From: a virus
DNA length: 64,000 nt
Virus record (IMG/VR): IMGVR_UViG_3300031994_000034
Direction: 5' to 3' (one strand)
A program made the translations under genes and the position numbers. The stretch's first letter is position 1. The number at the start of each line of letters is the position of its first letter. This document shows positions 14,460 through 64,000 of this stretch, piece after piece. The notes beneath the pieces are model-generated. The model saw only the letters and a list, made by a program, of their open reading frames with translations. It ran no database searches and had not been told where the DNA came from.

Positions 14460-14620
14460 ACCACAGATTTCGCGAATTGAACGAATTTTCTGTGTTATCT
14501 GTGAGATATTAAACGAGTTAAAGTCAATAACTTGAAGAATATGAAAAAGATTTGTGTAAGACTTGGAGCGGTGGCATCGGTGCTGCTCGCGCTCGTAATT
14601 GTGATAGGAGGGAAGTAGTT

Positions 14621-14905: not shown

Positions 14906-15009
14906 ATAAGGCTTTGGTATGAAAAAGGAATAGCGTACACGCTACGCCTGTCGTGGAATGGCAGTAGGCTGTGCGTATTGGAATAAGAAACCTTTGCGCA
15001 CAGCCACTT

Positions 15010-15092
15010 GGGAGCGAAAGCCTGTAAATGGTGCAACAGGCATTAGTAAAACTTGCCGGTGAGCGAGGGTTCGAGTCCCTACACTCCCACCA
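15010..15092 (+). other. tRNA-like element (acceptor stem, T-arm and CCA present; no canonical anticodon arm)
   Basis: T-arm GAGGG-TTCGAGT-CCCTA at 15065-15081. The 3' acceptor strand CACTCCC-A-CCA pairs 6/7 with GGGAGCG at 15010-15016. A D-position hairpin gcctgt/acaggc has a GG-containing loop. The 23 nt in the anticodon position do not form a 5-bp stem. Confidence 0.4.
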
Positions 15093-15106
15093 TTGATAAT
15101 AAAATT

Positions 15107-18100
15107 GTGAACAAGAATAATTTCGACATATTAAATGGCCTGAGCCTCGTGGAGGTGATGCGAGGGTGGGGCAGGGTGCCGATGCGCGACGGTGATGCGT
15201 CGGCATCGTTCCTGTGTCCGTGGCATGATGATCATAGACCGTCGCTCATCGTTGACAAGGTGGTGCGGAAGGGTGCGACGGACCTCGGGTTTAAGTGCTT
15301 CGCTTGCCACGAGGAGGGCTTCGGGGCTGTGCAGTTAGCTGCACGGCTGATGGGTCTGCCGTCGGGTAAGGTGCCCGACGCGGACCGTGAGCGTGTGCTG
15401 ACAGAACTGGCTACGCGCTGCAACGTGGAGTTGGAGCAGGAGGAGGGCGAGAAGCAATATTACAACACACTGCGGACACAGATTATCGGTTGGGACGCCT
15501 TTCGCCAGGCCGAGGTGCAGTATGCTGAATGGGATGGCAAGGAACCGCAGTTCGAGCGCGGAGAGTGGACGGAAGAAGGACTGAAGGCACTGGGATTCAA
15601 GGTGGCGCTGACAAGCCGCAAGATGAAGAAATCGGAATACACGGAGTACTCTGGGTATTCCGAGAAGTCTGAGATTCAGCAAGGCGATATGCTGACGCAG
15701 TTCGACCCAGACACGGGCGAGGCGCTTTACTGGTGCTCGTTGGGTGCCGGGTTCTATCGCGGACCGAAGAAGGCAGAGGCACGGACTATCCGGGCCTGGG
15801 GTGCGGAAGTGGAGCGGCTGTTTGGCGTGGAGCCGGTGGCGAGGTTCATCCGTCGGAAGGAGAATGAGAAAAAGGGCGGCTACTACGTAAGCATCGTGAG
15901 AGCCACAAAGAACTATCCTATCTTCATGTTCCGCTATGCGTGGGGCGTGAAGAAGTATGAACCGAAGGACTTCTACGGCACGACGAAGTGGACGTGGTGG
16001 TGTCTCGCGGAAGATGCCGACTTGGAACACCGTTGGTATGCTGATGCCGGGCTGACGGACGCGCTGGAAGGTGCGGTGCCGGAGGTGGACGAGCGGCACC
16101 CCTACGAGAAGCAGAAGGATAAGGACGGAAAGGAAACGGGCAAAGTGAAGTTTGGGCGCGTGGTGCTCTGTAGCGGTCCGAGGGATGCGATGGCGGTGTA
16201 TAGCCATAGCAATGCCCATGTGGTGTGGCTGCACTCTGAGCAGGCGGGCTTTGACAAGAAGAACGGCAACGTGCGGCCTAACCGCTGGCTCCGGGCTTTT
16301 ATCAAGAAGTTGCTGGGCGTGACGAAGGAGGGCGGGCTTTATGTCTGCTACGACGAGGATGCCACGGGGCTGGCGGCAAGCCAGGCTATTGCACTGAATA
16401 ATCCGCAGGTGCGGTGGCTGAGACTGCCGAAGGAGCTGGGGATGATCCTTGCGGGAAAACCGCAAGGCACACTGCAGAAATCGCTGAAGGACGTGACGGA
16501 CTTTGTGACGCGCTTCGCGGAGGTGGAGGGGCTGATGCCCGCCGACGTGCAGCACGACGACCCGGTGGAGTGGTTCGACAATGCGTTGTTCGACACGCCG
16601 ACGTGCCAGTTCTGGCAGTATGAAAGTGAGCGGAAGGACAAGGACGGTTCGCCGCGCAACAGATATAAGTTCGACCTGCGCAATACACCCGTGTTTCTCC
16701 GTGCGAGGGGCATGGTGCGAAAGTATGTGGAGCAGGGCGATGACTCCTATTCGCGCTTTTTCTTGTTGGGCAACGACCATACGTTCTGTGAGTTATTCGC
16801 GGGACAGAAGGGGAGCAACAAACTCGTGGCACAGAGCCGTGACCTCATGGCGGAATGGCTCAGGGCGCACAAAGAATACAACGACGAGAAGGGTGCGCTC
16901 TCACGCGCTATTTTTTCTGCGAAGATGGAGCAGAGCGTGATGGAGAGCATCGAGACGGTGGACTTCGACGACAAGAGTTTTGGCGAGGACTTTGACCACT
17001 TCTTCTTCAAGAATGTGGCAGTAAAGGTGACAGCCGACAAGATAGAGAAGGTACCGTACAGCAGCATGAAGTGGTGGACCAGTGCCGACGCTATCCTTGA
17101 CGGTAAGTTCGAGGTGGTGCCGCAAGCGTGGCGCGTGGAGGTAAATCCATTCTACGAGCCGGAGCGCATCAAGCACGAAGAGATATTGCAGACCGCCAAG
17201 ACCAGCGAGGAACGGGCACAGGAAAATATGCGCTGGGATCAGTGGGAGGCGCTGTGGAAGTACCGTCTCGTGACAGACAAACCCATAGGCGAGATGCCTA
17301 TGCACTTCCGCTTCCTGTATAACACATGCCGCATCTTCTGGGAGAAGGAGCAGTCGCAGGAGCTGACGAAGACGGAGAAGCAGGTGCAGGATATGTACTT
17401 CATCGCCATGCTCCATGCCCTCGGCTCGGCGTTGGTAAGACACCGCTCCGCCAACCGTCAGCAGTTCATCCACATCACCGACAACGGTACACGGCGAGAG
17501 GATTTGGCATCGGGTGGCACGGGTAAGACCGCCATCTTGGAAATGCTCTCGCTCGTGCGTTGTTCCCTCGCCATCGACGGCAAGGCGCTGGAAGGCTCGA
17601 ACATCATCCTGGAACAGGAACTCGGAAAGATTGTACCGGGGCTACACAACGTGGTCTGTCTGGACGAACTGCCAGCCGGGTTCTCTCCCAAGAAGATGTA
17701 TAACATGCCGCTGGGCGTGACCTCACGCGGACTGTATCACGGCTCTGTCCGGCTCACGGGCGACGACCTGCCGAAGTTTGTGGTGGCCAGCAACGAGCAG
17801 TTGGACCTAAGCAGCGACTCTACGAGCCGTCGCATCTATCAGATCCTCGTCGGCGACTGGTATCATCCGCGCAGCATGGACGGTTCGCGTCCGGCACACA
17901 CACCTGCCGACGACTTCCGCAAGGACTACCACGTCAAAGAAGTGTCGCGCAACCTGCCCGCAACTTTGCTCAACGAGGCCAGGAACCTCCTGCTCGGCTG
18001 TGTGCAGCTCTTCTTCCAACTGCCCGACGAGACCCTGCGCCCGCCACGTGACAGCCGTGCCCTGCTGCGTCAGGCACTGGCGGCCAGCAAGGATGAGCAG

Positions 18101-18568
18101 TTCACGCTCTGGATAGCGCAGTACCTCGCTGACAAGCGGCACCTCGGTGCGCCCATCGCCCAGCGCGAACTGGCCATCTCGCTGCTCGACTACTGCGGAA
18201 TCAGCGTAGGCGAGAAGACCCTGAAGGCAGCCTACAAGCGCATCCGCGACAACCTGACCGACTACATCAAGACCAGCATCTACGTCGTGGACCCGCCCGT
18301 GGTGTTGCTGACCCCAACGGACAGAGAACGTGGATTCCGGCAGTGCGCGGCATGGCAATACCCCAAGGCCTCCGACGGCTACAGCATAGCCCTCAACGAC
18401 AAGGGCGAGCGGATGCCGCGCGAACTTCGCAACAGCACAAGGGTATATTACTTCTATGTCAAGAGTCGCATACCGAGGCACTTCTACAGCCCCGACCATG
18501 TGGGCGACAAAGACTATGTGCAGGCGGCGCCGGAGAAGGATCCGGAGGCGGGCGAGCAATCGGAATAA
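15107..18568 (+). CDS. DNA primase (CHC2 zinc finger plus Toprim) fused to a P-loop helicase/NTPase
   Basis: Motifs 'CPWHDDHRPS...CFACHEEG', Toprim-like 'VVLCSGPRDAMA...YVCYDEDATG', Walker A 'GGTGKTA' and Walker B-like 'VVCLDELP'. Start placed at the in-frame GTG 15107, because the track start at 15053 lies inside the tRNA-like element. Confidence 0.85.
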   Translation: MNKNNFDILNGLSLVEVMRGWGRVPMRDGDASASFLCPWHDDHRPSLIVDKVVRKGATDLGFKCFACHEEGFGAVQLAARLMGLPSGKVPDADRERVLTELATRCNVELEQEEGEKQYYNTLRTQIIGWDAFRQAEVQYAEWDGKEPQFERGEWTEEGLKALGFKVALTSRKMKKSEYTEYSGYSEKSEIQQGDMLTQFDPDTGEALYWCSLGAGFYRGPKKAEARTIRAWGAEVERLFGVEPVARFIRRKENEKKGGYYVSIVRATKNYPIFMFRYAWGVKKYEPKDFYGTTKWTWWCLAEDADLEHRWYADAGLTDALEGAVPEVDERHPYEKQKDKDGKETGKVKFGRVVLCSGPRDAMAVYSHSNAHVVWLHSEQAGFDKKNGNVRPNRWLRAFIKKLLGVTKEGGLYVCYDEDATGLAASQAIALNNPQVRWLRLPKELGMILAGKPQGTLQKSLKDVTDFVTRFAEVEGLMPADVQHDDPVEWFDNALFDTPTCQFWQYESERKDKDGSPRNRYKFDLRNTPVFLRARGMVRKYVEQGDDSYSRFFLLGNDHTFCELFAGQKGSNKLVAQSRDLMAEWLRAHKEYNDEKGALSRAIFSAKMEQSVMESIETVDFDDKSFGEDFDHFFFKNVAVKVTADKIEKVPYSSMKWWTSADAILDGKFEVVPQAWRVEVNPFYEPERIKHEEILQTAKTSEERAQENMRWDQWEALWKYRLVTDKPIGEMPMHFRFLYNTCRIFWEKEQSQELTKTEKQVQDMYFIAMLHALGSALVRHRSANRQQFIHITDNGTRREDLASGGTGKTAILEMLSLVRCSLAIDGKALEGSNIILEQELGKIVPGLHNVVCLDELPAGFSPKKMYNMPLGVTSRGLYHGSVRLTGDDLPKFVVASNEQLDLSSDSTSRRIYQILVGDWYHPRSMDGSRPAHTPADDFRKDYHVKEVSRNLPATLLNEARNLLLGCVQLFFQLPDETLRPPRDSRALLRQALAASKDEQFTLWIAQYLADKRHLGAPIAQRELAISLLDYCGISVGEKTLKAAYKRIRDNLTDYIKTSIYVVDPPVVLLTPTDRERGFRQCAAWQYPKASDGYSIALNDKGERMPRELRNSTRVYYFYVKSRIPRHFYSPDHVGDKDYVQAAPEKDPEAGEQSE
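15635..15679 (+). repeat. 9-bp periodic array inside the primase CDS (GAATACACG GAGTACTCT GGGTATTCC GAGAAGTCT GAGATTCAG)
   Basis: Read directly. It translates as EYTEYSGYSEKSEIQ. Confidence 0.8.
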
Positions 18569-18589
18569 TCAGAGTATTCAGAAAATGGA
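18554..18589 (+). repeat. 9-bp periodic array spanning the primase stop and the next start
   Basis: GAGCAATCG GAATAATCA GAGTATTCA GAAAATGGA, read directly. Confidence 0.75.
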
Positions 18590-18959
18590 ACAGGAGAAGC
18601 ATCAGCAGAGAGTCATTGTCATCCGCAAGTCGCGGTTGACCGGACGGGCGATATGGATATACGAAGGCCCTACACGCAGGGCGGCGCATTGGGCCTATTG
18701 GTATGCACGCCGCAAGGAGGTGCAGCGCGTGAACACCTGGTGCGACAGGGCCTTGCGCCGCAAGGCGAACATCCTGCGACTGTTGAACAAGTGCCTGGAG
18801 CACATTCCGCTGGATGCCGTGCTCACGCCGGAGCAGAATGCAGCTGCACGCACGCTCCGAAAGATAAGCGAAGAGGCGTACATGCCGGACATGGAGTTCT
18901 ATAACCAAGTCATAGCTGCACACAAAGTGCAGGCAGTTAATGATTTGAGAAGGAAATAG
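18585..18959 (+). CDS. hypothetical basic protein
   Basis: ATG (MEQEKHQQRV...) within track ORF 18456..18959, whose upstream part overlaps the primase 3' end. Confidence 0.6.
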   Translation: MEQEKHQQRVIVIRKSRLTGRAIWIYEGPTRRAAHWAYWYARRKEVQRVNTWCDRALRRKANILRLLNKCLEHIPLDAVLTPEQNAAARTLRKISEEAYMPDMEFYNQVIAAHKVQAVNDLRRK

Positions 18960-19009
18960 AGGATTTGTCTAACCAGTATTATGTTTAGTTTCTTGTCATT
19001 TAGAGTACT

Positions 19010-19342
19010 ATGAACTACCATGTAAAAGAAAAATGGGTCTCCAAACCGTGTAATTGCAGAAATGAGTTTGCGACGCCACGCGACCATCATCAGTATGGAT
19101 ATGAGACTGAACATGATTTTTCAGCTGCTCTCCATAGACTGCACAGCCGATGGTCGGGCTGGACGGGTACGGAGATCGGCAGGCGCAACGGCTTCATCCG
19201 TCTGCGCTTCGTGGGCGTCTATGGCGACGTGAGCAACGTGTGGCTCCCGGACTTCATGCTGGAGCGCGTGCCGGAGCCGATGGGCGACACGAGTGGCGAC
19301 AGCACGGAGGAGCTGCTTGACGAGATATTCAAGTTCGACTAA
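19010..19342 (+). CDS. hypothetical protein
   Basis: 110-aa ORF. Confidence 0.65.
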
Positions 19343-19356
19343 ATACACCAATCACC

Positions 19357-19500
19357 ATGACAAGAGAACAGTATATAGAGCGCATGGCCCGTGCGATGTA
19401 CGGCGAGCGCTGGCAGTGTGCCGAGGCACAAGAGAAGGCCTCCCGCATGGCGGACAAGGCGGCTGCGGTATATCCATTCGACACGGAGGAACAACCATGA
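19357..19500 (+). CDS. hypothetical small protein (47 aa)
   Basis: ATG ORF whose stop overlaps the infA-like start (ATGA). Confidence 0.45.
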
Positions 19501-19724
19501 GCAAGCAAGATTTCATCAAGACTAAGGGCAAAGTGACGGAAGCCCTCGGCGGCGACCGCTTTCGCGTGGAGTTGGAGAATGGTGCCGTCATCCTCGGCAC
19601 ACTCTCGGGCAAGATGCGGCAACGGCATATCCGCGTGATGCCAGGCGATGCGGTGGAAGTGGAAATGTCGCCCTACGACCTTACGCGGGGACGGATAGCA
19701 TACAGGTATAACAAACAACGATAG
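19497..19724 (+). CDS. infA: translation initiation factor IF-1 homolog
   Basis: The 75-aa product '[75 protein letters not shown]' is collinear with bacterial IF-1. The blocks [27 protein letters not shown] are shared. Confidence 0.9.
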
Positions 19725-19733
19725 ACATACGAT
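19624..19733 (+). repeat. 110-bp direct repeat, left copy (infA 3' end plus leader)
   Basis: Aligns gap-free with 20095..20204 with 4 mismatches. Confidence 0.9.
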
Positions 19734-19734
19734 T

Positions 19735-20094
19735 ATGGCAACAATGAATTTCTTCCTCTCTATCTGTGGAGTGATAGCCTACGTGGCGATGGCGTATCTG
19801 GCCATCACGGCCTATGTCCGCTTGCGGCATGTAGGCTCGAAACTGGACGAGCTGCAAGCCACGACGGCAAAATTGTGCGCCCTGGTGTCGGCCTTGAAGC
19901 TGCAGAGCGATTTCGACCACATCAACGACATGAAGGACACCCTTCGGCAGCTCGTAGAGGCCGAGCGGTTTGAAGATGCTGCGAAACTGCAAGCCGTCAT
20001 CGCCGAACAGGAAGAGCTTGCGCTGAAGAACATGAAGGCGCTTCAGGATTCCTACGGTGGCAAGGAACTGGTGGTGCGCATAGGACGTAAGTGA
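19735..20094 (+). CDS. membrane-anchored protein with a UVR-like motif, flanked by the 110-bp repeats
   Basis: N-terminal hydrophobic segment. '[19 protein letters not shown]' resembles the UvrB/UvrC UVR motif. Confidence 0.65.
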
Positions 20095-20204
20095 GGCATA
20101 TCCGCGTGATGCCAGGCGATGCGGTAGAAGTGGAAATGTCGCTCTACGACCTTACGCGTGGACGGATAGCATACAGGTACAACAAACAACGATAGACATA
20201 CGAT
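20095..20204 (+). repeat. 110-bp direct repeat, right copy (infA 3' fragment, non-coding)
   Basis: Duplicate of the last 101 nt of infA plus 9 nt of leader. It lacks the infA start and N-terminus. Confidence 0.9.
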
Positions 20205-20508
20205 GAAGCGAGTATATATCAGCGGTGCCATAGCGCACTATGATTTGAACGAGCGCAGGGCGGCCTTCGGGCGTGCCGCAGCGTTTCTGCGCGGTCAGGG
20301 CTACGACGTGTTCAATCCGTTCGAGAACGGCCTTTCGCAGGACGAGGACTGGCGCAAGCACATGAGGGTGGACATCCGTGCTCTGGTGGACTGCGATACC
20401 ATCTATATGCTCAGGGGGTGGGAATTGTCGAAGGGTGCGAAGTTAGAGCTGGATGTAGCCAGCAGTTGCGGCATACCCGTGTGGTTCCAGAGAGAAGCGG
20501 AGGAGTAA
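20203..20508 (+). CDS. DUF4406 / nucleoside 2-deoxyribosyltransferase-like protein
   Basis: The pattern 'VYISGAI...N...F...A..L...G..VFNP...W..HM..DI..L..CD.IYML.GW..S.GA.LE...A...GIPV' matches that family. Confidence 0.7.
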   Translation: MKRVYISGAIAHYDLNERRAAFGRAAAFLRGQGYDVFNPFENGLSQDEDWRKHMRVDIRALVDCDTIYMLRGWELSKGAKLELDVASSCGIPVWFQREAEE

Positions 20509-20514
20509 ACCGTT

Positions 20515-21639
20515 ATGTCTGCGCCGAAGTCCATAAGCATTTCTCCCCTGCCGGCCCTGCCGAAGTGCTGGAGTGACCTCTCGTGGCAGCAGCTCTGCCA
20601 GTGTTGGGAGGCGAAGATGCGCTACGGCGGCAACCCCGACGTTGCTCGGGCGGCGGCGTTGTTGAAGATGGTCGGGCTGGGGCGGAGTAATCAGAAAGCT
20701 CAGATAGACCCCCTCACCGGCGAGACCAGCCACATTCTCTCCGCTGCCGACGGACGCCTCTTCACCGTCACTCCCCGCGAACTGGCATGGATGGCTCAAA
20801 AGGCACTGCCCTGGTTTGACTATCCCTACGGCGACATGGGCGAGAAGGAGGAACGCGACGAGCAGGGAAAGATTACGAAAGAAGGGCGCGAGGCAGTGAG
20901 CGGTTACGTCAGTGATTTTCGCGACGCGATGATCCTGCCGGAGACGGAGGTGGTTATCGTGGGCGACAGGCTGTTGGCCGGCAGCGAATGGGAGCGCATG
21001 AGCGATAAGGAAAGAAAACTCTTAACTCTACACTCTAAACTCTCCACTCTCCACTTCTCCCTTCCCCAGATGGCGTGCAATAACATCACATGGCAGCAGT
21101 ATCGCTCCATGCAGGCACTGGCCCCGCAACTCTTCCACGAAGGGAACAGCGAGGAGGAAGCCCTCGACCTGCAGGCGCAGTTCTTGGCCTACTGCCTTGT
21201 GCCAGCCAAGGAGGATACCGCCACCGACGACCGATTTCGTCCGCGCCGCATCTACCGTTACGAAGCGGAACGTGCCGAGCAGACCATCCCGTTCTGGCGG
21301 GAGCGGTTAACCCGGATCAGCCAGAATACTCAGAGTAATCAGGACACTCAGACCGTTCTCCCCCTCTTCCACATCTGCTTCCAGGCCTATCACACCGCCG
21401 TTCTCTACTACGAGAAGGCCTATCCTCTCCTGTTCACTGATATCGGTAAGAGCCAGGAGTTCCGCGACGCCCTGCAAGGCGAAGTCGGCACCGTCAACTC
21501 CGTAATGAAATACCAGGGCTACTCAGATCCTCAACAGGTCTATGATGCCAATCTCCCCATCATCCTCGATACGCTCAACACGATGGCAAAAGAGGCTAAG
21601 GAGATAGAGAAAATGAACGCTAAAATTAAGAAGAAATAA
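20515..21639 (+). CDS. hypothetical protein
   Basis: 374-aa ORF. It contains a short 9-bp array (21324-21350, QNTQSNQDTQ) and a CT-rich low-complexity tract. Confidence 0.75.
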   Translation: MSAPKSISISPLPALPKCWSDLSWQQLCQCWEAKMRYGGNPDVARAAALLKMVGLGRSNQKAQIDPLTGETSHILSAADGRLFTVTPRELAWMAQKALPWFDYPYGDMGEKEERDEQGKITKEGREAVSGYVSDFRDAMILPETEVVIVGDRLLAGSEWERMSDKERKLLTLHSKLSTLHFSLPQMACNNITWQQYRSMQALAPQLFHEGNSEEEALDLQAQFLAYCLVPAKEDTATDDRFRPRRIYRYEAERAEQTIPFWRERLTRISQNTQSNQDTQTVLPLFHICFQAYHTAVLYYEKAYPLLFTDIGKSQEFRDALQGEVGTVNSVMKYQGYSDPQQVYDANLPIILDTLNTMAKEAKEIEKMNAKIKKK

Positions 21640-21643
21640 AATT

Positions 21644-21844
21644 ATGGCAAGAGGTGCAATAAAAAACTCTGTACTGCTGCAGGAGGCGGCAAAAATGATT
21701 GCTGAATATCTTGAATCGGAGGTGTGCGACTTAATGGCCGACGAATACGACGGCGCTACTTATTGTCCGCCGGACTGCCCCAAAACCGTGGATGACGGAT
21801 GCGTGTTGCATCTTCTTAGGCTAAAGTGCATGAAAAAGCGATAA
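21644..21844 (+). CDS. hypothetical Cys-containing small protein
   Basis: 66-aa ORF. Confidence 0.5.
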   Translation: MARGAIKNSVLLQEAAKMIAEYLESEVCDLMADEYDGATYCPPDCPKTVDDGCVLHLLRLKCMKKR

Positions 21845-21877
21845 ACACGAAGTTATAACCAATTATAAAGCTACAAC

Positions 21878-23677
21878 ATGGAACAAATAACCCTACTTTA
21901 CATCGACCTCTTCTGTGGCGCGGGCGGCACCAGCAGCGGCGTGGAGTATGCCCGCGTGGACGGCAGAAAGTGCGCCAAGGTCATTGCCTGTGTCAACCAC
22001 GACAAGAATGCTATCCTCTCGCACCAGGCCAATCACCCGCACACGCTCCACTTCACCGAGGACATCCGCACGCTGGAACTGTCGCCGATGGTGACACACC
22101 TGCGGAAGATGAAGGCGAGATACCCAAAGGCTCGTGTGGTACTATGGGCCTCACTGGAGTGTACGAACTTCTCAAAGGCCAAGGGTGGTCAGCCCCGCGA
22201 TGCCGACAGCCGCACACTGGCAGATCACCTGTTCCGCTACATTGAGGCACTCGACGTTGACTACATCCAGATAGAGAACGTGGAGGAGTTTATGTGCTGG
22301 GGAGCGCTCGATGAGAACGGTAAACCCGTGAGCAAGGACCAGGGCAGCGACTACCTGCGGTGGGTGCGCAAGGTGCAGGAATATGGCTACGACTTCGACT
22401 GGCGCATCCTGAATGCTGCCGACTTCGGAGCATACACCTCGCGCAAACGCTACTTCGGGCAGTTTGCCCGCCGTGGGCTGCCCATTGTCTTCCCCGAACA
22501 GACCTACGCGAAGAATGGCGACGAGGGAGGTCTCTTCAAAATGTACCACAAGTGGCGTGCCGTCCGCGACGTGCTCGACCTCGACGACGACGGCGAGAGC
22601 ATCTTCACCCGCAAGAAGCCACTCTGCGAGAAGACGCTGGAACGCATCTACGCCGGCCTGGTGAAATTTGTGGCAGGAGGAAAGAAACAGTGCGAGGCGT
22701 GGATTCTGAAATACAACTCCATGAACCAGCAGAACCACCACAACGCACCCTCCCTCGATGAGCCGTGCCCCACGGTGGCGTGCCAGAACCGCCTCGGACT
22801 GGTGAAGTGTCAGTTCCTCTCGAAGCAGTTTAGCGGCGACCCTGACAGCAAGAACATCGACATCGAGCAGCCTGCCGGCACCGTGACCACCATCGACCAT
22901 CATGCACTGGTGTCATCAAGGTTCCTTACGGAGTATTTTGGTGGTGCTGACCACAACCATAGCATCGAGGAACCTGCGACCACTGTGACGACCAAGGAAC
23001 GTCACGCCTTTGTGACGGCATACTACGGGAACGGCTACAACTCGTCGATTGACAGTCCTGCACCCACCGTGACCACGAAGGACAGGATTTCTCTCGTGAG
23101 CACGAAGTTCATCGCCAACGAATACAGCGGCGGCGGTCAGCTCTCCAGCATTGAACAGCCGAACCCCGCCGTTCTCACTACGCCCAAGCAGAAAATTGTT
23201 ACCTGCAAGCCGTGGTTGATGAGCACCGACTTCAATAATGTCGGAAGTTCTGTTGATGGGCCGGCACCAGTTATAACAGCATGTCACAAATATCATTACC
23301 TGATGAATCCCTATTCATTCAAGAGCGACGGCGGCAGCATCGAGAAACCTTGCTTTACGCTGATAGCGAGGATGGATAAGATGCCGCCCTACCTCATTAC
23401 CACCAAGGAGGGCGAGGTGGGCATCGCCATCTACGAGAGCGACAGCCTCTGGACGCGAAAGGTGAAGGAGTTTATGGCTGCTTATGGCATCATCGACATT
23501 TGTATGCGTATGCTGAACATCGGCGAACTGAAACGCATCATGGGCTTCCCCACCGACTACGTTCTCGTAGGTACCCAAGCCGAGCAAAAGAAATACATCG
23601 GCAACGCCGTGGAGGTGAACATGAGCCGCGTGCTCTGCGAGGCACTGGCCCGGAAACTTGAAAGTATTAACAAATAA
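21878..23677 (+). CDS. DNA (cytosine-5) methyltransferase with an expanded, internally repeated variable region
   Basis: Motif I 'DLFCGAGG', catalytic Cys motif 'SLECTNFS', 'QIENV', 'TSRKRYF' and motif X 'IGNAVEV'. Seven tandem modules of the type S-I-E/D-x-P-x-P-T-V-T-T lie between motif VIII and the C-terminal motifs. Confidence 0.85.
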   Translation: MEQITLLYIDLFCGAGGTSSGVEYARVDGRKCAKVIACVNHDKNAILSHQANHPHTLHFTEDIRTLELSPMVTHLRKMKARYPKARVVLWASLECTNFSKAKGGQPRDADSRTLADHLFRYIEALDVDYIQIENVEEFMCWGALDENGKPVSKDQGSDYLRWVRKVQEYGYDFDWRILNAADFGAYTSRKRYFGQFARRGLPIVFPEQTYAKNGDEGGLFKMYHKWRAVRDVLDLDDDGESIFTRKKPLCEKTLERIYAGLVKFVAGGKKQCEAWILKYNSMNQQNHHNAPSLDEPCPTVACQNRLGLVKCQFLSKQFSGDPDSKNIDIEQPAGTVTTIDHHALVSSRFLTEYFGGADHNHSIEEPATTVTTKERHAFVTAYYGNGYNSSIDSPAPTVTTKDRISLVSTKFIANEYSGGGQLSSIEQPNPAVLTTPKQKIVTCKPWLMSTDFNNVGSSVDGPAPVITACHKYHYLMNPYSFKSDGGSIEKPCFTLIARMDKMPPYLITTKEGEVGIAIYESDSLWTRKVKEFMAAYGIIDICMRMLNIGELKRIMGFPTDYVLVGTQAEQKKYIGNAVEVNMSRVLCEALARKLESINK

Positions 23678-23689
23678 AAAGCTACAACA

Positions 23690-24145
23690 ATGATGAAACC
23701 AACAGAACTAATGAACGGCGACTATGTCCGCGTGAATAGACCGGGACTTTGCATCAAGGAGGGTACCGTAGTGCAAATTTTGTCAGTTGACAGCGCGGAT
23801 AGCCTCGTGAATTTCAATTTGAAGGGCTCAGCAGTGTGCAAGCCTATCAATGACGATGACTATGAGGGAGGCATCTGGCTCAATTATCTTGACCCTATCC
23901 CTCTCACCAAGGAAATTCTGAAGAAGAACGGGTGGGAGTACAACGACGAAGAAGCAAAATTCTTCCCCAAAACATGGGTCGGCGGCGGACTGATGCTCCA
24001 GGAGCGTGACGAAGGATTTATGATTGTTGTCACTTCAGACTACGACGACGAAGACACCAATGACACCCCGTTCGTTTTGCTTTACGTCCACGAATTGCAG
24101 CACGCCCTGCGGCTAAGAAGAATTGAAAAGGAGATAGAAGTATGA
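23690..24145 (+). CDS. hypothetical protein
   Basis: 151-aa ORF preceded by the AAAGCTACAACA leader, with an ATGA overlap to the next gene. Confidence 0.7.
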   Translation: MMKPTELMNGDYVRVNRPGLCIKEGTVVQILSVDSADSLVNFNLKGSAVCKPINDDDYEGGIWLNYLDPIPLTKEILKKNGWEYNDEEAKFFPKTWVGGGLMLQERDEGFMIVVTSDYDDEDTNDTPFVLLYVHELQHALRLRRIEKEIEV

Positions 24146-54459: not shown

Positions 54460-56220
54460 TTATGCCTTTCCCACCTTTTTCAAGGCGCGTATTTCCTCGT
54501 AGGTCATGCCGGCCTTCACGCGCTGGTGCTGGTTCGCCTTCGGAGCCTCGCCAGTACCGTTGCCGGCTGGCACACCAGCGCCGGCGTTGGTCATCGGAGC
54601 GGGCTTCTCGCTGAGTTCCTTTACCTCGGCCTGCAGGTCGGCCACCTTCTTCTGAAGGGCCTCGATGCTGGCATCCTTCTCCGTGAGGGCTGCATCCTTG
54701 GCAGCGATGGTGGCAACGTGTTCGGCAATCGTCTTGTCGCGCTCTGCGATGACGGCCTGTGCTTCGTTGAAGTTCTTCTGCGCTTCGGCGACATTGGCTT
54801 GTGCCTCGTCGCGCTCCTCGGCAATGCCATTCAGCGTGGCAAGGCTCTCCTTCAGCTCGGCAATCTCCTTGTCCTTCTCGGCAATCATCGCCTCTGCTGT
54901 GGCAAGTGCCTCTGCCTGTTCTGCGGCATCCTCATTAGCGGGTTGCTCTTCGGCGGACTGCTCCTGTGCAGTGGCTTCCTCGGCAGCTGGTTTCTCCGTG
55001 GCAGGTGCTTCCTCGGCAGCAGGTGCTTCAGTGGTTCCGAGCTGTTTGGTCAGCTCGTCAATCTTTGCTTGCAGACCTGCGACCTCGCTGGCCTTCGTCT
55101 GCATCTCCGTCAGTTTCTCGTTCAGCGTGTCGAGAAGAGGTGCATTGAGGAAGGTGCCTTCCTCGGTCACGTTCAGCTCTTCCACACCAAGAACCTGAGC
55201 GATGTTCTGATACTTCTTAGTCATGTTCGTACTATTAGTGGGTGAAACATTGTGTCGTCTGCTCTCAGTGGGCACGTCGGCAGGTCGGCCTACGTTCCGG
55301 CTTGCCGTTCGCTCAATAGGCTCCTCGCTGCCGTCGGCCACGGCAAAGGCGCGACCTATCAACTCGCCCAGCAGCATCTGTCCGTCGCACAGGACGCCCA
55401 TCACCTCGTCGGCATAGAACACCTTTCCGTCCAGATGCTCGTCGGTGGCGTTGGTGAACGATGCCTGCATGTCGGTGCGGAACTCGTCTTCCAACTTGTC
55501 CAGCTCGGCGATGAGCAGCGTGGCATCGTTGTCGTTGGCGATGTCGCGTATCTCCTTGTTCTTGTTGATGCTCTTCGTGGCGTAGTATTCGTGGTAGGTC
55601 TCGTTGGTATAAATCTTCTCGCCGTCGCCCAGCGTGAAGAACGATGCCATCACGCCCACGCAGCCCAGTTGGTCTTTCAGGTTGACCACATACACCTCGT
55701 CGCAGAACGAGGCGAGGTACATGCCAGCCGAAGCACACAGCCCGTCGATGAGTGCATAGACGCGCTGACCGCGCTCGTGGGCATAGTCGATGGCCTGTTT
55801 GAAATCATTCTTGGCCCAGGCTGAACCGCCCGGCGTGTTGATGACGATGACGTGGGCACGGCAATACCTGTTATCGGCAGCCTCCATCATCCAGTCGCGG
55901 ATATCCTTCGAACCGTAGGTGCAGGCATCGCCGTTGCGCGTGATGGGACCGCTCACGGGCATCACGTTCACGAAAGGCACGCTCATCTTCGACAGCAGGT
56001 TCTCGCCCCATCCGTCGTAGCGGGGCACAGCCGCGCCGTCCTCCGTTACCTGTACCTCGCGGATGAAGTCACCACCTGCCACGGCCAGCATCGGGCGTTT
56101 CTTCTCTACGGTGGCCAGCGCCACGTGGTTGTTGGCGTTGTACATCAGCGTGGGCAGTATGCCGTGGACGAACGCCGGCAGTATCATCCAGTGCTTCGTA
56201 GTGAATAATTCGTAGTTCAT
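54460..56220 (-). CDS. S49/ClpP-family prohead serine protease fused to an acidic coiled-coil scaffold-like domain
   Basis: 'VIVINTPGGS' and 'GLCASAGMYLA' peptidase blocks in the N-terminal half. The C-terminal half is rich in A/E/K coiled coil. Confidence 0.8.
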   Translation of the reverse strand: MNYELFTTKHWMILPAFVHGILPTLMYNANNHVALATVEKKRPMLAVAGGDFIREVQVTEDGAAVPRYDGWGENLLSKMSVPFVNVMPVSGPITRNGDACTYGSKDIRDWMMEAADNRYCRAHVIVINTPGGSAWAKNDFKQAIDYAHERGQRVYALIDGLCASAGMYLASFCDEVYVVNLKDQLGCVGVMASFFTLGDGEKIYTNETYHEYYATKSINKNKEIRDIANDNDATLLIAELDKLEDEFRTDMQASFTNATDEHLDGKVFYADEVMGVLCDGQMLLGELIGRAFAVADGSEEPIERTASRNVGRPADVPTESRRHNVSPTNSTNMTKKYQNIAQVLGVEELNVTEEGTFLNAPLLDTLNEKLTEMQTKASEVAGLQAKIDELTKQLGTTEAPAAEEAPATEKPAAEEATAQEQSAEEQPANEDAAEQAEALATAEAMIAEKDKEIAELKESLATLNGIAEERDEAQANVAEAQKNFNEAQAVIAERDKTIAEHVATIAAKDAALTEKDASIEALQKKVADLQAEVKELSEKPAPMTNAGAGVPAGNGTGEAPKANQHQRVKAGMTYEEIRALKKVGKA

Positions 56221-57798: not shown

Positions 57799-60700
57799 TC
57801 AATATCTCTGCCCGTACCTGTTCAGTGTTTTCTTTCCGCTGTCGTAGGAATCTACCAGGCCTCCTTTGCCATAGACATCAAAGGTGGCTTTGATGCCGTT
57901 GATGCGCAAGTCCTCCAGGAGGTCGCTCTGACGATCGATGCTGGCTTGCAGGGAGGCTGCCTGTTCGGCGCTCATGCCGGCGGCAGCGCTTTCCGAATAC
58001 TCCGAGTAATCCGAGAACTCAGAGAGATTGCCGTCGGCGAAGGCCGCCACTCCCCTGCCCCTGCGACGCAAGGCGCTGATACGTCCGCCGCCGCTGAGGG
58101 TCTGTATGGCGTGCCAGATTTCGCCTTCGTTCATCGTGATTTGGCGGGTGGTGCCTGCGTCGATGATCATCTCGCGGCCTCGCTCGCCGCTCAGGTGGAA
58201 CTCTGGGCCGTTGGTGAGGTGGGTCTTCGGGCTGCGCCCCATGTAGCGGGCGCGGTAGGTCTTGCCGTCGGCGGCATCCACGTTGTATTGCCGTCCTTCG
58301 CGCAGGGTGGATGGGTCGGTAAACTCGTTCACGTTACCCTCGGCATAGGTAAGCATACCAGTAGTCAGGCGACCTGAAGCGACAGAAGATACGCCCGTGG
58401 CCTGTGCGATTTCAGATTTTGACTTGGCAATCTTGCTGGCAGCAAGGCCCATCAAGCCGCCGAGTAGCCCAGTAAAAATGGCAAAAACGGGAATAGCACC
58501 CCAGCCCAGTTGTGACCACAGCTTAGACAGGACGGAAGGCGTTTCAGCGGCCACTTGTCCCGTGGTTTGGGAGAGGTTGGTGGTCAGTGCCGTGATGGCT
58601 GCGTTACCAGCAGCCTGCACGGCAATCATACCGAACTTCTGCGAGGCCGACATATTCTCATTCGACATAGCCTGGTAGGCGATGCCGTAGAGGTTGGCGG
58701 CGACGGTCATCTTGGCGAAGGCCGACTGTGTGCTCTTCTGTATCTTCGTGTCGGTCTGAACCTGCCCCTGCGCAATGTCCTGTTGGTTCTGTAGGATGGT
58801 CTCTTTGGCGGCGGTACTGCCTTCGGCATAGGCCTGCCATGGCGATATAATTGTTTCGGCGGCGGGCGTATCGCTGGTGGGCTGCAGGGGTGAGATGCCG
58901 TCCACGCCGAAGCCGGCCCCGGCAGCTGAATCGTCGCCCGCCCCGCCTCCGGCCATTGTCGCTGCCAGTCGCAGTATGGCCTTCGTGTTGGTATCCAGTG
59001 CATCCGTGTTCGCGTCGATGCTGACGTTCTGCAGCATCGCGTTCAGCTGGTCGGTGATGGTCTCCGACATCTTCATGTTCAGGTCGTCCATCAGTTTCTT
59101 CCATGCGTCGGCCATTGCGTTGCGCTGCTCGATGTCCAGCACCTCCTGGTCGCTGAGTGTCTGGTACGATGCCTCGGCGTCCTTCGTGCCGGCGTTCTCC
59201 ACGACGATGTACTGGCCGCTGGTCGATGCGCCCGTCAGCCGCTTCTTGGCCTGCTCGGTGTAGAAGTCGGCCTGTCCCGTGTTCGATGCCTCGAAGACAC
59301 CTTGCAGTGAAGAAGCAACCAGGTCGCCCCATTCGCGCAGCGCTGTATAGAGGCGGTTCTGGCTCTCCTCCATCTGATTGGCGATGGCCACGCGCTGCTC
59401 CTCCAGCTTCTTCAGTTCCTCCGTCTTGGCCAGGTTCAGAGAGCGGCGCAGGTGCTCGGCATCCTCCAACCGGCCTTCGGCTTTCAGCTGCGCAATGCGC
59501 TCCTCGCCTATCTGACGCATACGGTTGTAGTAGGTCGTCTGCATGGCCAGTCGCACCTGCATCTGTTTGATGGCCAACTTGTCGGCCACGCGCTCGCTGG
59601 CCTGTCCTGCGCCGATGAGCGAGTTGGCCCGCTTCACCTGATCCTCGGCCAGTCCCAGTCGGCTCAGCGCCTTCTCGAAGCCGTCGCGGCGGCTCTGCGT
59701 CTGTCCCTCTGCGATGTCGGCCCACCAGATGTCGGTCTGCTTCTTGATGAGCGACGCCTCCTTCTTGATGGCATTCTGTATCTCGTCGTAGGCCGTGCGC
59801 AGCTGCGCCATGAGTGCCTGCTGCATCTGGGTGTCCCCGCGTATGGCGTCGGCCCAGGCTTGCATGCCCTGCTCGCCCATGTGGCGCATCACCTCCTCGA
59901 TGGTTGTCGAATAAGCATTCTCTGCCTCGCCCAGCATGAAGGCCGTGCGCTTCATCTCCTCGGTAGCCTGCCGGCTGTTGAAGTCGCTCATGTCGGCATT
60001 CTCGCGCATCAGGCGGTTGCGCTCGGCGGTCATGTCAGCCGTCAGTATGCCCATCGTCACCAGGTTCTCGCGCAGGTTGCTCGTGATGCCGTCGTAGGGC
60101 CGTTCCTTCTCGATGATGTCGCGGATGGCCTTCATCTGTGCGGTCACGGCCTGCTGCTGTTTCAGGAGGTCGCGCTCGATGCCTTTGTCCAGTTTGCCGA
60201 AGATGGTGCGCTGCTCCGCCTCGCTCTTCTGTCCGATGTCGTAGATGAACTTCACCGTCTTGCCGATGGTCTTCTGAATGAAGTCGGCGGTGTCGCCCGT
60301 GCGTTCGCTGAGGATGTCGAAGATGGCTTGCTGCTCCTCTTCCGTTACCTCGGTACTTTTCTTGGCGTAGAGCTTCTGCAGTTCCGCCCTGCGCTGGTGC
60401 CATTCCATTTCGTTGGCCAGCGTGCGGTTCTTCATCTCGGCCTCCGTGATACCCTCCTCCGTGGCTGCCTCCTGAATGCGCGTCTTGCGCTCCGTGTAGT
60501 AGGCATCCAGTTCATTGAGGTACGCACTCCACTCGTCCTTGATGACCTTGGCGCGAGCCTTCTGTTTGGTCGGGTCCATCCAGTCGCCCGTGTTCGTCAG
60601 ATGCTTCTCGTGCAGGGCATCCTGTATCTTCAGTCGCTCGGTATTGTACCACTCGATCGCCTGCTTCGTGTCCTTGATATTCTTGCGTGTGGCCTCGGTG

Positions 60701-63700
60701 ATGAACTTGGCATCCTCCGAGAGAACCGCCTGCACTTCAGCACCATTTGCCAACGCACGTACACGCTCCAGCATCTCCTTGCGGCGCGAGACGAGGGCAT
60801 CGGCATCCCAATCCTGATAGGGCGAGGTGACGCGGTTGTAGGAGCCGTAGGGGTTTGTAGTGGGTGTGGGAGTGGGTTCGGGGTTTTCGTCTGTGCCCGT
60901 AGGTGTGTTAATCTTCAACTCTTTTACTCTTCCTTGCAGACGTTCTATTCCCTTATCAACAAGAGCAATATCTGCTTCAAGACTTTTAATGGCAGAATCC
61001 TCCTTCTTTACGTCTGCCTTTGCCTTTTGCAGGTTTTGGCTTTCACGTGACATGCCTGTAGCCATCGCCCGCATACCCGACGTGCCAAGCTGCTGATTGG
61101 CTTGTGCGCCTACAAGACTTGTCCTTAGACTTTCCTTCGATACTCTTCCCTGTGCCTCCTTGCGTCGTTCCTCTGCTTCTTCCTTTTCAAGTTCCAACTC
61201 CATCCTTTTCTGCTGCAACTCCTTCGCCTTCTCCTCGTAGGCACGGGCACGGGCAGTTTCCATGATGGATGCAGCCAGCTCGTCATACGCACTGGCGGCG
61301 GCTTTGGCAAAATCGCTTTCGGAAGCAAGGTTCTCGTAGTATTGCTTATACTTCTCGTCGCCCACCATATCCTTCAGGGCCTTTTTCCGCTCGTCCAGCG
61401 ATTTTGTCTGGTCTTGTGTTGCCTTGTATAGTTTCTCAAGTTCGATGCGCTGTTCGATGCTTTCTTTCTTCGCGTTCTTCTCTGCGTCCTCAGCCGCGTT
61501 CAGTGTCTTCGCTGCTTCCGAAACTTTCTTCTTGAATGCTCCCATAGCGTCAGCCGCGAGTAATATAGCACCTGCGGCAGCCGTGAAGATGTTGCCCCAT
61601 TGCAATGCCGTCATTTCCCCCTTTACAAATCCCAACAGCACTCCAATGTTTTTCAGCCCGTTCCCCAACGATACCAAAGCGCCTTTTGCAATGCTTAGCA
61701 CTTCTACTCTAACCAAGGTCAAATAAGCGATAATGGAACGCAGGGCAACGCTGATGCCGCTGTTGCCCGTCAAAAGGTCAACCACTTCCCGTAGTCTGTC
61801 GATAATCCAACCAAGCCGTCTTTGCGCACTATCCCCCACAAACGCTTCCTCAAATTGGTTCTTCAACCTCTCCCACTTCGCAGCGGCGGTTTCGTTCATG
61901 TTCGCAAACTCGTTAGCCAGAGCCGTGTTTTTCTCGTAGGCTTCGCTGGCGATGCCGAGTTGCTTCTCCAGTTCGTCCACGTTCTGCGAGAGCAGACCGA
62001 AGACGATACCGGCGCGGGCACCCTGCTGTTCGAGGTCTTTCATCACCTCGCGCATGGTGGCGTTCCGTCCCAGCATACCCTCGATGGTCTGCGCCATCTG
62101 CTCCTGTCCCTGCTCGGTGCTGGTGTCGATGTGCTGGATGTTGTCGCGCATCTTCTGGAAGATGAGCACCATTTGCTCCATCGGTGCCAGGCTCTTCAGG
62201 TACGATTCCGTCACATTGATACTGTTGGCGATGGCAAAGGAGTTGTTCTTAATGGCAGGAATCATACGCGAGAGAGCCGTAGCCGACATCTCGACGCGAC
62301 CGCCCAGCGCGTCAATGGTAGAACCGAGGGCGGCAATCTGGTCGATTGAGATACCAGCCTGAGCACCCACGGCACCCACACGGCTCACGAAGTCGGTAAT
62401 TGGTCCGGCGGCAGAAGCCGAGTTGGCACGCAGAGCGATGATGGTAGAGCCCACCTTCTCCAGCGTCTCGCGCACGTTGCCACCATTCTTCTCCAAGTCG
62501 CCCGTGGCATTGGCTATCTTGATGATGGTGCGCGCACTCTCGTTACCCAGTTCCGGCAGGGCGACAATCAGCTGGTCGGCAGCCTCAGTGAAGCCCTGCA
62601 CCTGCTCCTGCGTCTTCAAACCGACAGAACCTGCTAACGAACTCAGCTCCATGAGTTGCGTCAGCGAAGTTCTGGTGTCCAACTTCGCCAGGTTATTGCT
62701 CAGCCGTCCCACCTCGTCGGCGGTGAAGCCCGTGGTTTTACGCACCTCACCCATCTTGTCCGAAAGCGTCAGCAAGTCACCCATCGCCTGAGAAAGTTTC
62801 TGCATCGCTACGGCAGCACCCACGTACAGCCCGACGTAAGTCTTCAGTCGCGACCACGCCTTGTCGAAGGCCGAAGCAGTGCCTTTGCTGGAGTTGCCGA
62901 GTTGCTTCATCTCGAAGTCGGCAGCCTTTATCTTCGCCGCCAGTTCCTCGAAGCGTTTCTGCCCCTCCTCGGTGCTGCGGTCCATCGCGTTCAGTGCCAA
63001 ACGTCCCTGCTCCACCGCCTGTTTCAGCGCATTGAACGACTTACCCTTGGGTTGGTCGAGCACGGCCTGGACTTCTTTCGTGAGTTCGCCAGTCTTGGAA
63101 AGTTCGAGGTCAATCTTGTTAATGGCGTCCTGCAGTTCGGTGAAACGAGCTGTGCCGCGTCCTGCTGCGTTCTGTGCATCTTCAAGCGCTTTCTTGGCGA
63201 GTTTCAGTTTGTCGGTGCTGGCAGAGAATCCTTGCGTCCCGAGTTGTCCGGCAAGAGCTTCGGCATCGGCAAACGCCATCACTTCCCCTGCTGCCACCTT
63301 CGCTGCCGCTCCTGTCTTCTCGATGTAATTGTTTATCTCTGCAATAACGGAGGCTTCGGTCTGACGTGGTAAGGAGTCGCGATAGGCGATGAGCGCTTTT
63401 TGCTGCTCCTGAATCTGTGACGCACTGGCATTGCTGGTGTCGCCACGGAAGAAGTTGAGGGCATCCTGTCCTTTTGTGCGGACACCGACCGCCGCCATTT
63501 GCTCTTGCAAATCCTTTACCTGTTGTAGGTTGTTCTTATATTGCTGTATGCTTTGGGCTGCTGTCTTCGGGTCGTCAATAAGTCGCTGCCAATAACTCTC
63601 CTGTGCTTTAAGTGCCGATTGCGACAAGGCTGTTCCTTGCTGCAACTGTGTCTGCATGAGCTGATTTTGCTTGGTTCTTTCCTGCGCGGCTTTCTGTTCG

Positions 63701-64000
63701 GCATTGATTTCTTTCTGCGCCGTCCGTTCTGCCTCCAGACCAAATTTGCGAAGATGTTCCTCTGCCTTGACAATTTGCTGCGATAGAGTTCGATACATGC
63801 TTTCCGTCGGAGCGAAAGTCTGCTGATACTCCCGTGCCGCTGCAATCGCCTTGCGCAGGTCTGCCTCTGATAGCGTAACATATCGGTTGCCGATGAGTTT
63901 GTCAGCCCACTCTACATTCTGAGTCCTTGTCAGCTGCTCTTGCAACTGATGAACGGTAGCGAGGTTGTCTTTGTATGTCTGCAAGTTGGCGGCTGCTGTC
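57799..64000 (-). CDS. tape-measure-like giant protein (more than 2060 aa, N-terminus beyond the window)
   Basis: The frame is open to position 64000. It is largely coiled coil, with a central segment (…GLYVGAAVAMQKL…LAGSVGLKT…) that resembles tape-measure core regions and hydrophobic segments near the C-terminus. An in-frame 9-bp array at 57995-58021 encodes EFSDYSEYSE. Confidence 0.7.
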   Translation of the reverse strand, partial: TAAANLQTYKDNLATVHQLQEQLTRTQNVEWADKLIGNRYVTLSEADLRKAIAAAREYQQTFAPTESMYRTLSQQIVKAEEHLRKFGLEAERTAQKEINAEQKAAQERTKQNQLMQTQLQQGTALSQSALKAQESYWQRLIDDPKTAAQSIQQYKNNLQQVKDLQEQMAAVGVRTKGQDALNFFRGDTSNASASQIQEQQKALIAYRDSLPRQTEASVIAEINNYIEKTGAAAKVAAGEVMAFADAEALAGQLGTQGFSASTDKLKLAKKALEDAQNAAGRGTARFTELQDAINKIDLELSKTGELTKEVQAVLDQPKGKSFNALKQAVEQGRLALNAMDRSTEEGQKRFEELAAKIKAADFEMKQLGNSSKGTASAFDKAWSRLKTYVGLYVGAAVAMQKLSQAMGDLLTLSDKMGEVRKTTGFTADEVGRLSNNLAKLDTRTSLTQLMELSSLAGSVGLKTQEQVQGFTEAADQLIVALPELGNESARTIIKIANATGDLEKNGGNVRETLEKVGSTIIALRANSASAAGPITDFVSRVGAVGAQAGISIDQIAALGSTIDALGGRVEMSATALSRMIPAIKNNSFAIANSINVTESYLKSLAPMEQMVLIFQKMRDNIQHIDTSTEQGQEQMAQTIEGMLGRNATMREVMKDLEQQGARAGIVFGLLSQNVDELEKQLGIASEAYEKNTALANEFANMNETAAAKWERLKNQFEEAFVGDSAQRRLGWIIDRLREVVDLLTGNSGISVALRSIIAYLTLVRVEVLSIAKGALVSLGNGLKNIGVLLGFVKGEMTALQWGNIFTAAAGAILLAADAMGAFKKKVSEAAKTLNAAEDAEKNAKKESIEQRIELEKLYKATQDQTKSLDERKKALKDMVGDEKYKQYYENLASESDFAKAAASAYDELAASIMETARARAYEEKAKELQQKRMELELEKEEAEERRKEAQGRVSKESLRTSLVGAQANQQLGTSGMRAMATGMSRESQNLQKAKADVKKEDSAIKSLEADIALVDKGIERLQGRVKELKINTPTGTDENPEPTPTPTTNPYGSYNRVTSPYQDWDADALVSRRKEMLERVRALANGAEVQAVLSEDAKFITEATRKNIKDTKQAIEWYNTERLKIQDALHEKHLTNTGDWMDPTKQKARAKVIKDEWSAYLNELDAYYTERKTRIQEAATEEGITEAEMKNRTLANEMEWHQRRAELQKLYAKKSTEVTEEEQQAIFDILSERTGDTADFIQKTIGKTVKFIYDIGQKSEAEQRTIFGKLDKGIERDLLKQQQAVTAQMKAIRDIIEKERPYDGITSNLRENLVTMGILTADMTAERNRLMRENADMSDFNSRQATEEMKRTAFMLGEAENAYSTTIEEVMRHMGEQGMQAWADAIRGDTQMQQALMAQLRTAYDEIQNAIKKEASLIKKQTDIWWADIAEGQTQSRRDGFEKALSRLGLAEDQVKRANSLIGAGQASERVADKLAIKQMQVRLAMQTTYYNRMRQIGEERIAQLKAEGRLEDAEHLRRSLNLAKTEELKKLEEQRVAIANQMEESQNRLYTALREWGDLVASSLQGVFEASNTGQADFYTEQAKKRLTGASTSGQYIVVENAGTKDAEASYQTLSDQEVLDIEQRNAMADAWKKLMDDLNMKMSETITDQLNAMLQNVSIDANTDALDTNTKAILRLAATMAGGGAGDDSAAGAGFGVDGISPLQPTSDTPAAETIISPWQAYAEGSTAAKETILQNQQDIAQGQVQTDTKIQKSTQSAFAKMTVAANLYGIAYQAMSNENMSASQKFGMIAVQAAGNAAITALTTNLSQTTGQVAAETPSVLSKLWSQLGWGAIPVFAIFTGLLGGLMGLAASKIAKSKSEIAQATGVSSVASGRLTTGMLTYAEGNVNEFTDPSTLREGRQYNVDAADGKTYRARYMGRSPKTHLTNGPEFHLSGERGREMIIDAGTTRQITMNEGEIWHAIQTLSGGGRISALRRRGRGVAAFADGNLSEFSDYSEYSESAAAGMSAEQAASLQASIDRQSDLLEDLRINGIKATFDVYGKGGLVDSYDSGKKTLNRYGQRY

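Follow-up and report, generated by a model that had tools for sequence, protein, structure and literature searches.

The infA locus and its carrier

The window, a stretch of 64,000 nt, contains an infA-like gene whose 75-aa product (P0001) is a phage homologue of initiation factor IF-1. The gene lies inside a co-directional block of replication and DNA-modification genes that is tightly packed, with gaps of −4 to 50 nt (Table 1). Its start at 19497 overlaps, by ATGA, the stop codon (19498–19500) of a 47-aa ORF, as the first-pass annotation had described; between the window and relative L102 this short ORF shows four synonymous and three non-synonymous differences (pS 0.14, pN 0.03). The same annotation had called the infA copy virus-carried, which agrees with the gene content of the carrier: phage genes elsewhere in the window comprise a tape-measure protein and a head-protease-like protein, with a diversity-generating (DGR) reverse transcriptase and several DNA methylases also encoded.

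Table 1. Coordinates of infA, its neighbours, the 110-nt direct repeat and phage genes within the window.
Feature	Coordinates	Strand	Remarks
Primase-like protein, ~1170 aa	15053..18568	+	Conserved upstream anchor; weak CHC2 zinc-finger match (PF01807, E 0.0013, below cut-off)
Small conserved ORF, ~124 aa, in the interval between the primase-like gene and infA	18588..18959	+	tblastn matches in L001-L005 and L117-L122; counterparts in relatives are genes of 120-164 aa; no family match
110-aa ORF	19010..19342	+	Nearest lineage only (L102-L106); no Pfam match
47-aa ORF overlapping the infA start (ATGA)	19357..19500	+	Nearest lineage only (L102-L106); no family match
infA-like gene, 75-aa phage IF-1 (P0001)	19497..19724	+	Stop codon TAG
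Direct repeat, copy 1	19624..19733	+	Last 101 nt of infA plus 9-nt spacer; repeat search and alignment
119-aa ORF, hydrophobic N-terminus	19735..20094	+	Weak UVR-motif match; homologue after infA in L102-L106, L001, L003 and L004
Direct repeat, copy 2	20095..20204	+	Dead 3' infA fragment; 106/110 nt identical to copy 1
DUF4406, nucleoside 2-deoxyribosyltransferase-like	20203..20508	+	PF14359, 78.5 bits; directly after infA in type-B relatives
374-aa conserved ORF	20515..21639	+	Closes the variable slot; homologues 55-60% identical in L001-L005; called in L102-L108
Head-protease-like protein	54460..56220	-	
Tape-measure protein, 2061 aa or longer	57799..63984	-	

The carrier is a tailed phage of ~126 kb from gut or rumen Bacteroidota. 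Its relatives are IMG/VR viral records and metagenome contigs of 125.8–141.6 kb, among which sizes of 125,791–125,940 bp recur; two IMG/VR records, of 125.9 kb and 141.6 kb, have a CheckV estimate of 100%, and sample names indicate gut and rumen metagenomes as the sources. A megablast search with 8 kb around infA gave no match among GenBank phages, the phage family being absent from that collection at the DNA level. One 125.8-kb relative (L007) is binned in a 3.1-Mb Prevotellaceae MAG (G001), in which the sole infA match is the phage-borne copy on the 125.8-kb contig; the MAG is probably incomplete, its own infA missing from the search, and the binning is therefore a weak host hint only.

A primase-like homologue (1137–1190 aa) lies upstream of infA in all infA-carrying relatives (at least 15), usually at a distance of 0.4–0.8 kb with one to three small ORFs between (~2.5 kb in L118), and the genes downstream of infA are variable. 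With the primase-like protein as query, six more members of the family were recovered, four with infA and two without it at the site. L120, a 96-kb, 80%-complete IMG/VR record and the relative with the primase-like protein most similar to that of the window (91% identical), has no infA anywhere in its record, and an unrelated 149-aa gene occupies the slot (L120:6952-7401). Since two relatives lack infA at the site, one of them throughout its record, the gene is dispensable; it is an accessory gene of this phage family, advantageous but not essential, and its slot behaves as an accessory-gene hotspot.

Recombination has left a mark on this slot in the form of a 110-nt direct repeat, whose second copy is a dead infA fragment 371 nt downstream of infA; read from a GTG at 20091, it gives an ORF of 34 codons that overlaps the stop of the 119-aa ORF and carries Pro59 to Leu. 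Close relatives occur in two forms, type A (L102-L106), in which infA is followed by a 116–119-aa ORF, and type B (L107-L109), in which it is followed by DUF4406. The sequence after copy 2 matches the infA–DUF4406 junction of the type-B relatives L107 and L108, so that the window consists of type A joined to a type-B junction of 3' infA and DUF4406. On the strength of this match, copy 2 is read as a recombination scar, not a second gene, and infA provides the homology anchor at a hotspot of shuffling.

Family membership and fold

The 75-aa product is a member of the bacterial IF-1 family, on which profile, sequence and fold evidence agree. It matches the infA equivalog profile TIGR00008 of NCBIfam over its entire length (profile positions 1–69 of 69) with 104.4 bits against a cut-off of 61.15, and the S1-like IF1 profile PF01176 of Pfam, by which the first-pass annotation had proposed that the assignment be judged, over positions 2–64 of 64 with 85.4 bits against 30.2. 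Bacterial IF-1 sequences from the PDB align to the product gap-free and at full length (phmmer, E 2.6e-23 to 2.3e-19), and these alignments contain the sequence blocks on which collinearity with IF-1 had originally been claimed.

An AlphaFold2 model built on an alignment of 56 relatives (pLDDT 87.3) has strands at residues 7–18, 21–26, 31–36, 52–57 and 64–71 and a short helix at 38–42, forming a single OB fold in which a five-stranded barrel carries the helix between strands 3 and 4. The top 12 Foldseek matches of the model are bacterial IF-1 throughout, with TM scores of 0.84–0.96 to solved IF-1 structures. Superposition on free and 30S-bound IF-1 (4ql5, 9fco_I, 9h9h_X, 1hr0_W) gives an rmsd of 0.8–1.6 Å; for the ribosome-bound chains 9fco_I, 9h9h_X and 1hr0_W taken separately, TM is 0.86–0.95 and rmsd 1.2–1.6 Å.

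Other families with related domains fit poorly. The archaeal and eukaryotic aIF1A/eIF1A profiles TIGR00523 and NF003082 score 28.8 bits (cut-off 102.9) and 27.8 bits (cut-off 108), both below threshold, and the modelled 75-aa protein has none of the C-terminal helical domain and tails of a/eIF1A. The N-terminal OB domain of RsgA (PF16745) reaches 21.6 bits, below its cut-off of 27, and the phage protein is a stand-alone 75-aa domain without GTPase. No cold-shock or S1 family matches the phage IF-1 at E ≤ 0.01 in the profile search.

A phage-only lineage maintained by selection

A search of 5.8 billion proteins retrieved ~65 distinct relatives of 71–79 aa at 68–99% identity, on contigs of up to 126 kb; next below them came canonical 72-aa Bacteroidota IF-1s at 65–69% identity. 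Of 121 Bacteroidales genomes, 118 have a cellular infA product 52–64% identical to the phage IF-1, the overall range against any cellular Bacteroidota IF-1 being 52–69%. A search of a representative library gave no closer relatives and served as a broad sample for loop statistics. The ending of the protein, 14 residues long, had been described in the first-pass annotation as resembling the Bacteroidota type; the affinity holds insofar as the nearest cellular IF-1s belong to Bacteroidota, although the ending itself is not diagnostic, the 2n8n chain ending alike.

In a tree of 169 distinct IF-1 sequences (75 columns), a branch supported at 99% SH-aLRT separates the 74 distinct phage-type sequences from Bacteroidales, other Bacteroidota, Bacillota and Pseudomonadota. 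A phylogeny against cellular infA had been proposed as a means of dating the acquisition; the phage clade is well separated, but the 75-column tree gave neither date nor source and supports no particular attachment of the clade among Bacteroidota and other phyla. Every clade member for which a contig was retrieved has a phage-type setting, and infA keeps its synteny across assemblies made independently from many samples. For eleven phage copies compared in pairs, dN/dS is 0.05–0.3, with synonymous sites saturated between lineages; infA has therefore long been maintained by selection inside phages and is not a fresh host capture.

These data bear directly on the view of the gene as a passenger, be it a host infA of recent capture, a product of chimeric assembly or a copy in decay and devoid of function. 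The dead fragment 371 nt downstream and the recombination-prone slot speak for such a view, yet tree, dN/dS and synteny contradict it: purifying selection (dN/dS 0.05–0.3) acts on the full copy, which is intact, shares only 52–69% identity with any cellular IF-1, is monophyletic with 73 other sequences, always in a phage-type setting where a contig was retrieved, and is syntenic across independent assemblies from many samples. A passenger is accordingly considered most improbable.

In some clade members (L119:7045-7356, L122:7092-7415, L118:8905-9219, P0063 and P0089), extensions or insertions of 25–35 residues rich in Lys, Arg and Glu precede the OB domain, recalling the basic N-terminal extensions of phage bS21. 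A very divergent phage IF-1 (42% identity) in a 169-kb IMG/VR record (L006:5001-5231) has a G-G-G-Q loop and a Q-R-H helix motif, with ~6 residues inserted to separate strands 2 and 3, and sits on a long branch loosely with the clade. IF-1 homologues of 89–90 aa from Burkholderiales and Betaproteobacteria MAGs (L062-L068) share the G-K-M-R-Q-R-H-I-R helix motif of the phage clade and have ~18 aa of basic tail at the C-terminus; these genes are possibly a second infA paralogue.

Conserved and remodelled residues of the 30S interface

Column by column, 73 clade members were set against 72 IF-1s of cellular Bacteroidota and 23 further IF-1s; residues that are invariant or nearly so on both sides are F22, L26, N28, G38, K/R39, R41, I45, R46, G50, D51, V53, E56, S58, Y60, D61, G65, R66, I67 and R70. 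Published 30S contacts of IF-1 include K39, R41, R46, Y60, R64 and R66 (PMC10913371), and Arg64 and the C-terminal Arg69 have been implicated in 30S binding (PMC4611024), phage R70 corresponding to E. coli R69. [quoted passage not shown] The contact residues K39, R41, R46, Y60, R64, R66 and R70 are all present in the window protein and are 93–100% conserved in the clade, counting K/R exchanges at position 39 and R/K/H exchanges at position 64.

Loss of the residues needed for A-site binding had been named in the first-pass annotation as evidence that would speak against an IF-1; these seven are retained, whereas the hairpin tip and three further positions differ (Table 2). Residues 19 and 20 form the tip of the strand 1–2 hairpin in the AlphaFold2 model, and the window IF-1 has a G-G-D-R tip with Q42 and H44 in place of the canonical (P/S)-N-A-(M/T) with M42 and Y/F44. 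Of the signature positions, M21, H30 and M42 fall on the published 30S interface. Because the tip and the three further positions differ systematically from cellular IF-1, the phage copy is assigned by sequence to a diverged phage lineage that is not host-like.

Table 2. Differences between cellular IF-1 and the phage clade, by position.
Position	Cellular IF-1	Phage clade
19	N (98-100%)	G/A (91%)
20	A/T	D/E (99%)
21	M	R (94%)
30	H (90%, Bacteroidota)	V/A/I
42	M	Q/N (89%)
44	Y/F	H (94%)
47	I	V
48	L	M
C-terminus	No tail	Basic tail of 3-4 residues

Among 149 nearest cluster representatives, N19 is found in 131 (88%), A/T20 in 134 and Y/F44 in 138, and an acidic residue 20 in just two, both phage-like in appearance; since some apparently cellular IF-1s vary there, the canonical tip is a typical feature of the family with no standing as a formal criterion. 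Three candidate traits were set aside. Loss of His30 is not phage-specific, Ala30 being normal in Lactobacillaceae IF-1; loss of the N-A-M loop is not general to phage IF-1, three huge-phage proteins keeping P-N; and tighter binding through a higher positive charge finds no support in a difference as small as that observed (clade mean net charge +4.3 against +3.9 in cellular IF-1, p = 0.02).

The strand 1–2 loop of the clade resembles the L-G-x-x-(R/W) loop of aIF1A/eIF1A, which have a homologous OB fold (Foldseek TM about 0.8) and occupy the same ribosomal site, and one Aenigmatarchaeota aIF1A contains the exact octamer EALGGDRF of the phage IF-1. This likeness rests on five sequences and may be due to chance.

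The replaced residues could also be read as release from ribosomal constraints, with the changed helix-44 loop marking an RNA-binding OB protein that acts off the ribosome as an RNA chaperone, a cold-shock-like protein or an antiterminator for phage transcripts. Such an activity has been reported for E. coli IF-1 itself. The clade-wide replacement of the ribosome-specific N19-A20-M21 tip and of M42 and Y44, the dispensability of infA and its position among replication genes, not translation genes, would all suit such a role. It is nevertheless considered unlikely, as R41, R46, Y60, R64, R66 and R70 stay invariant over saturated synonymous divergence, the residues facing A1492/A1493 and uS12 thereby indicating a constraint beyond a generic need for RNA binding, and as neither a cold-shock nor an S1 family match was obtained (E ≤ 0.01).

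Start-site signals and translation genes

The start sites of this phage had been described as lacking Shine-Dalgarno sequences, and counting bears this out: of 70 gene starts, 6 have GGAG, GAGG or AGGA at −17 to −5, whereas random in-gene positions used as control give 8.7 ± 2.6. The context of the same 70 starts is Kozak-like: 60% have A at −3, 46% have C at −2 and 57% have T at −1; the leaders are A-rich, A peaking at −8 and at −13/−14, and G is depleted from −22 to −12. Absence of Shine-Dalgarno enrichment together with A-rich leaders is the pattern described for Bacteroidia (PMC9976891, PMC13000457).

A perfect GGAGG does occur 7 nt before the infA ATG (19483–19487), confined to the nearest lineage; it was rejected as a special Shine-Dalgarno site, as it encodes Glu-Glu of the 47-aa ORF and the leaders of other relatives are A-rich. 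Scans of 14000–24500 for sigma-70 promoters and terminators and for the Bacteroidota motif TAnnTTTG gave nothing above chance.

Neither bS21 nor IF-3 was found in complete relatives of the phage and no tRNA gene in the 64,000-nt window, so there is no wider translation toolkit for a ribosome takeover; IF-1 is the sole recognised translation gene of the family.

Putative role during infection

The best reading of infA is a working, ribosome-binding IF-1, because fold and contact residues are retained, the gene is under selection and the leaders are of host type; the product is somewhat more probably than otherwise a phage-adapted factor that binds the A site of the host 30S subunit. It would be made during infection together with the replication genes, would occupy the A site between helix 44, the 530 loop and uS12 in the manner of cellular IF-1, and would then work with host IF2 and IF3 in start-site selection, sustaining or raising initiation capacity while infection proceeds. 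That the phage thereby manipulates host initiation, as the first-pass annotation suggested, is what we infer.

The remodelled interface suggests changed binding, changed release or competition with host IF-1. Loss of Asn19 makes a weakened or different contact with helix 44 possible, and the substitutions (N-A-M to G-D/E-R at 19–21, and those at 30, 42 and 44) could alter the kinetics of binding and release or the competition with host IF-1, effects that would act on the Shine-Dalgarno-blind ribosomes of the host. A stronger version, in which the a/eIF1A-like L-G-x-D/E-R loop, M42Q and Y44H make a functionally distinct IF-1 that outcompetes the host factor and biases initiation towards A-rich phage leaders, or that makes initiation insensitive to a shut-off, by host or phage, of cellular IF-1, is doubtful; if true, it would represent a virus-specific specialisation of a universal initiation factor.

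Occupation of the A site with altered release might instead stop host initiation, the protein acting as a competitive inhibitor or decoy, or the phage copy might substitute for a host IF-1 inactivated by a host defence or by a shut-off mechanism of the phage. To our knowledge, no defence system targets IF-1. The changes hit precisely the interface positions M21, H30 and M42, with the His30 of 90% of cellular Bacteroidota giving way to V/A/I in the clade, and IF-1 in excess can block the association of subunits and thereby inhibit synthesis (PMC10913371). A general A-site blocker would, however, halt phage translation too, no feature exempting phage mRNAs was found, and with Ala30 natural in Lactobacillaceae the change at position 30 means little alone; this reading is judged rather unlikely, a shade more so than an off-ribosome role.

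Should the substitutions of the working factor alter how the ribosome behaves, they would represent the retuning of a universal factor by a virus; otherwise the gene would be an ordinary dosage supplement. The phage family offers a clean test case, the signature substitutions being few and located on residues mapped to the 30S interface, and a reconstituted initiation system of Flavobacterium johnsoniae (PMC9976891) is available for a direct comparison of the host factor with the phage IF-1.

Comparison with cellular and phage-borne factors

Cellular IF-1 (InfA; 1HR0, 1AH9, 4QL5, 9FCO) and the phage protein are alike in the OB domain of ~72 aa, the fold, the core and the basic 30S contacts; they differ in sequence (52–69% identity), in the hairpin (S/P-N-A-M to G-G-D/E-R) and in the basic tail of the phage form. 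Cellular infA genes lie in a ribosomal-protein cluster on the chromosome, whereas the phage gene lies in a replication block and is dispensable.

Phage IF-1 is already catalogued. In their account of huge phages, Al-Shayeb et al. 2020 (PMC7162821) listed IF1 next to IF3, ribosomal proteins, tRNAs and tRNA synthetases, and Lak, DAC and other examples are in GenBank; such genes, mostly from huge phages, have so far been listed and never characterised. The features by which phage auxiliary translation genes are recognised (PMC7162821) are found here too, in the form of hallmark genes in the window, CheckV-complete viral relatives and dN/dS of 0.05–0.3. The IF-1s of huge phages, Lak and Phosso are likewise phage-borne homologues proposed to redirect host translation, and Lak megaphages are likewise assigned to Prevotella. 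Those huge-phage genomes measure 470–600 kb, however, against ~126–142 kb in the present family, and none of their IF-1s falls in the clade, identity reaching at most 63%. The uncultured huge phages LR756511 and LR756508 and Sinorhizobium phage Phosso keep the canonical P-N loop, and the Lak megaphage protein has a P-S-T-R loop with H30 replaced by F, both unlike the clade.

New, in relation to these, is a deep IF-1 lineage confined to phages, carried by mid-sized phages of Bacteroidota and marked by a defined 30S-interface signature; also new are the standing of IF-1 as the sole translation gene of the phage and the occurrence of natural relatives that have the gene beside others that lack it. 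The lineage is of interest for how phages compete for initiation on the ribosomes of Bacteroidota, which ignore Shine-Dalgarno sequences. Phage bS21 of Bacteroidota phages (PMC7162821, PMC6375957) represents the same concept, a small initiation-related ribosome ligand in hosts without Shine-Dalgarno pairing, but is a different protein that binds at the platform, the site of IF-1 being the A site.

An IF-1-like OB domain (46% identity, E 2e-13) is also encoded by gene 4 of the Bacteroides thetaiotaomicron phages DAC16, DAC19, DAC20, DAC22, DAC23 and SJC03. His30 is replaced there as in the clade, in this case by Met; the proteins nevertheless belong to a separate lineage, with 101 aa including an N-terminal extension, an N-G-T loop, and M42 and Y44 kept. 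Gene 4 (DAC19_4 in DAC19, L112:627-932) is annotated as a hypothetical protein, and as these phages are cultured, they provide a culturable system for phage IF-1.
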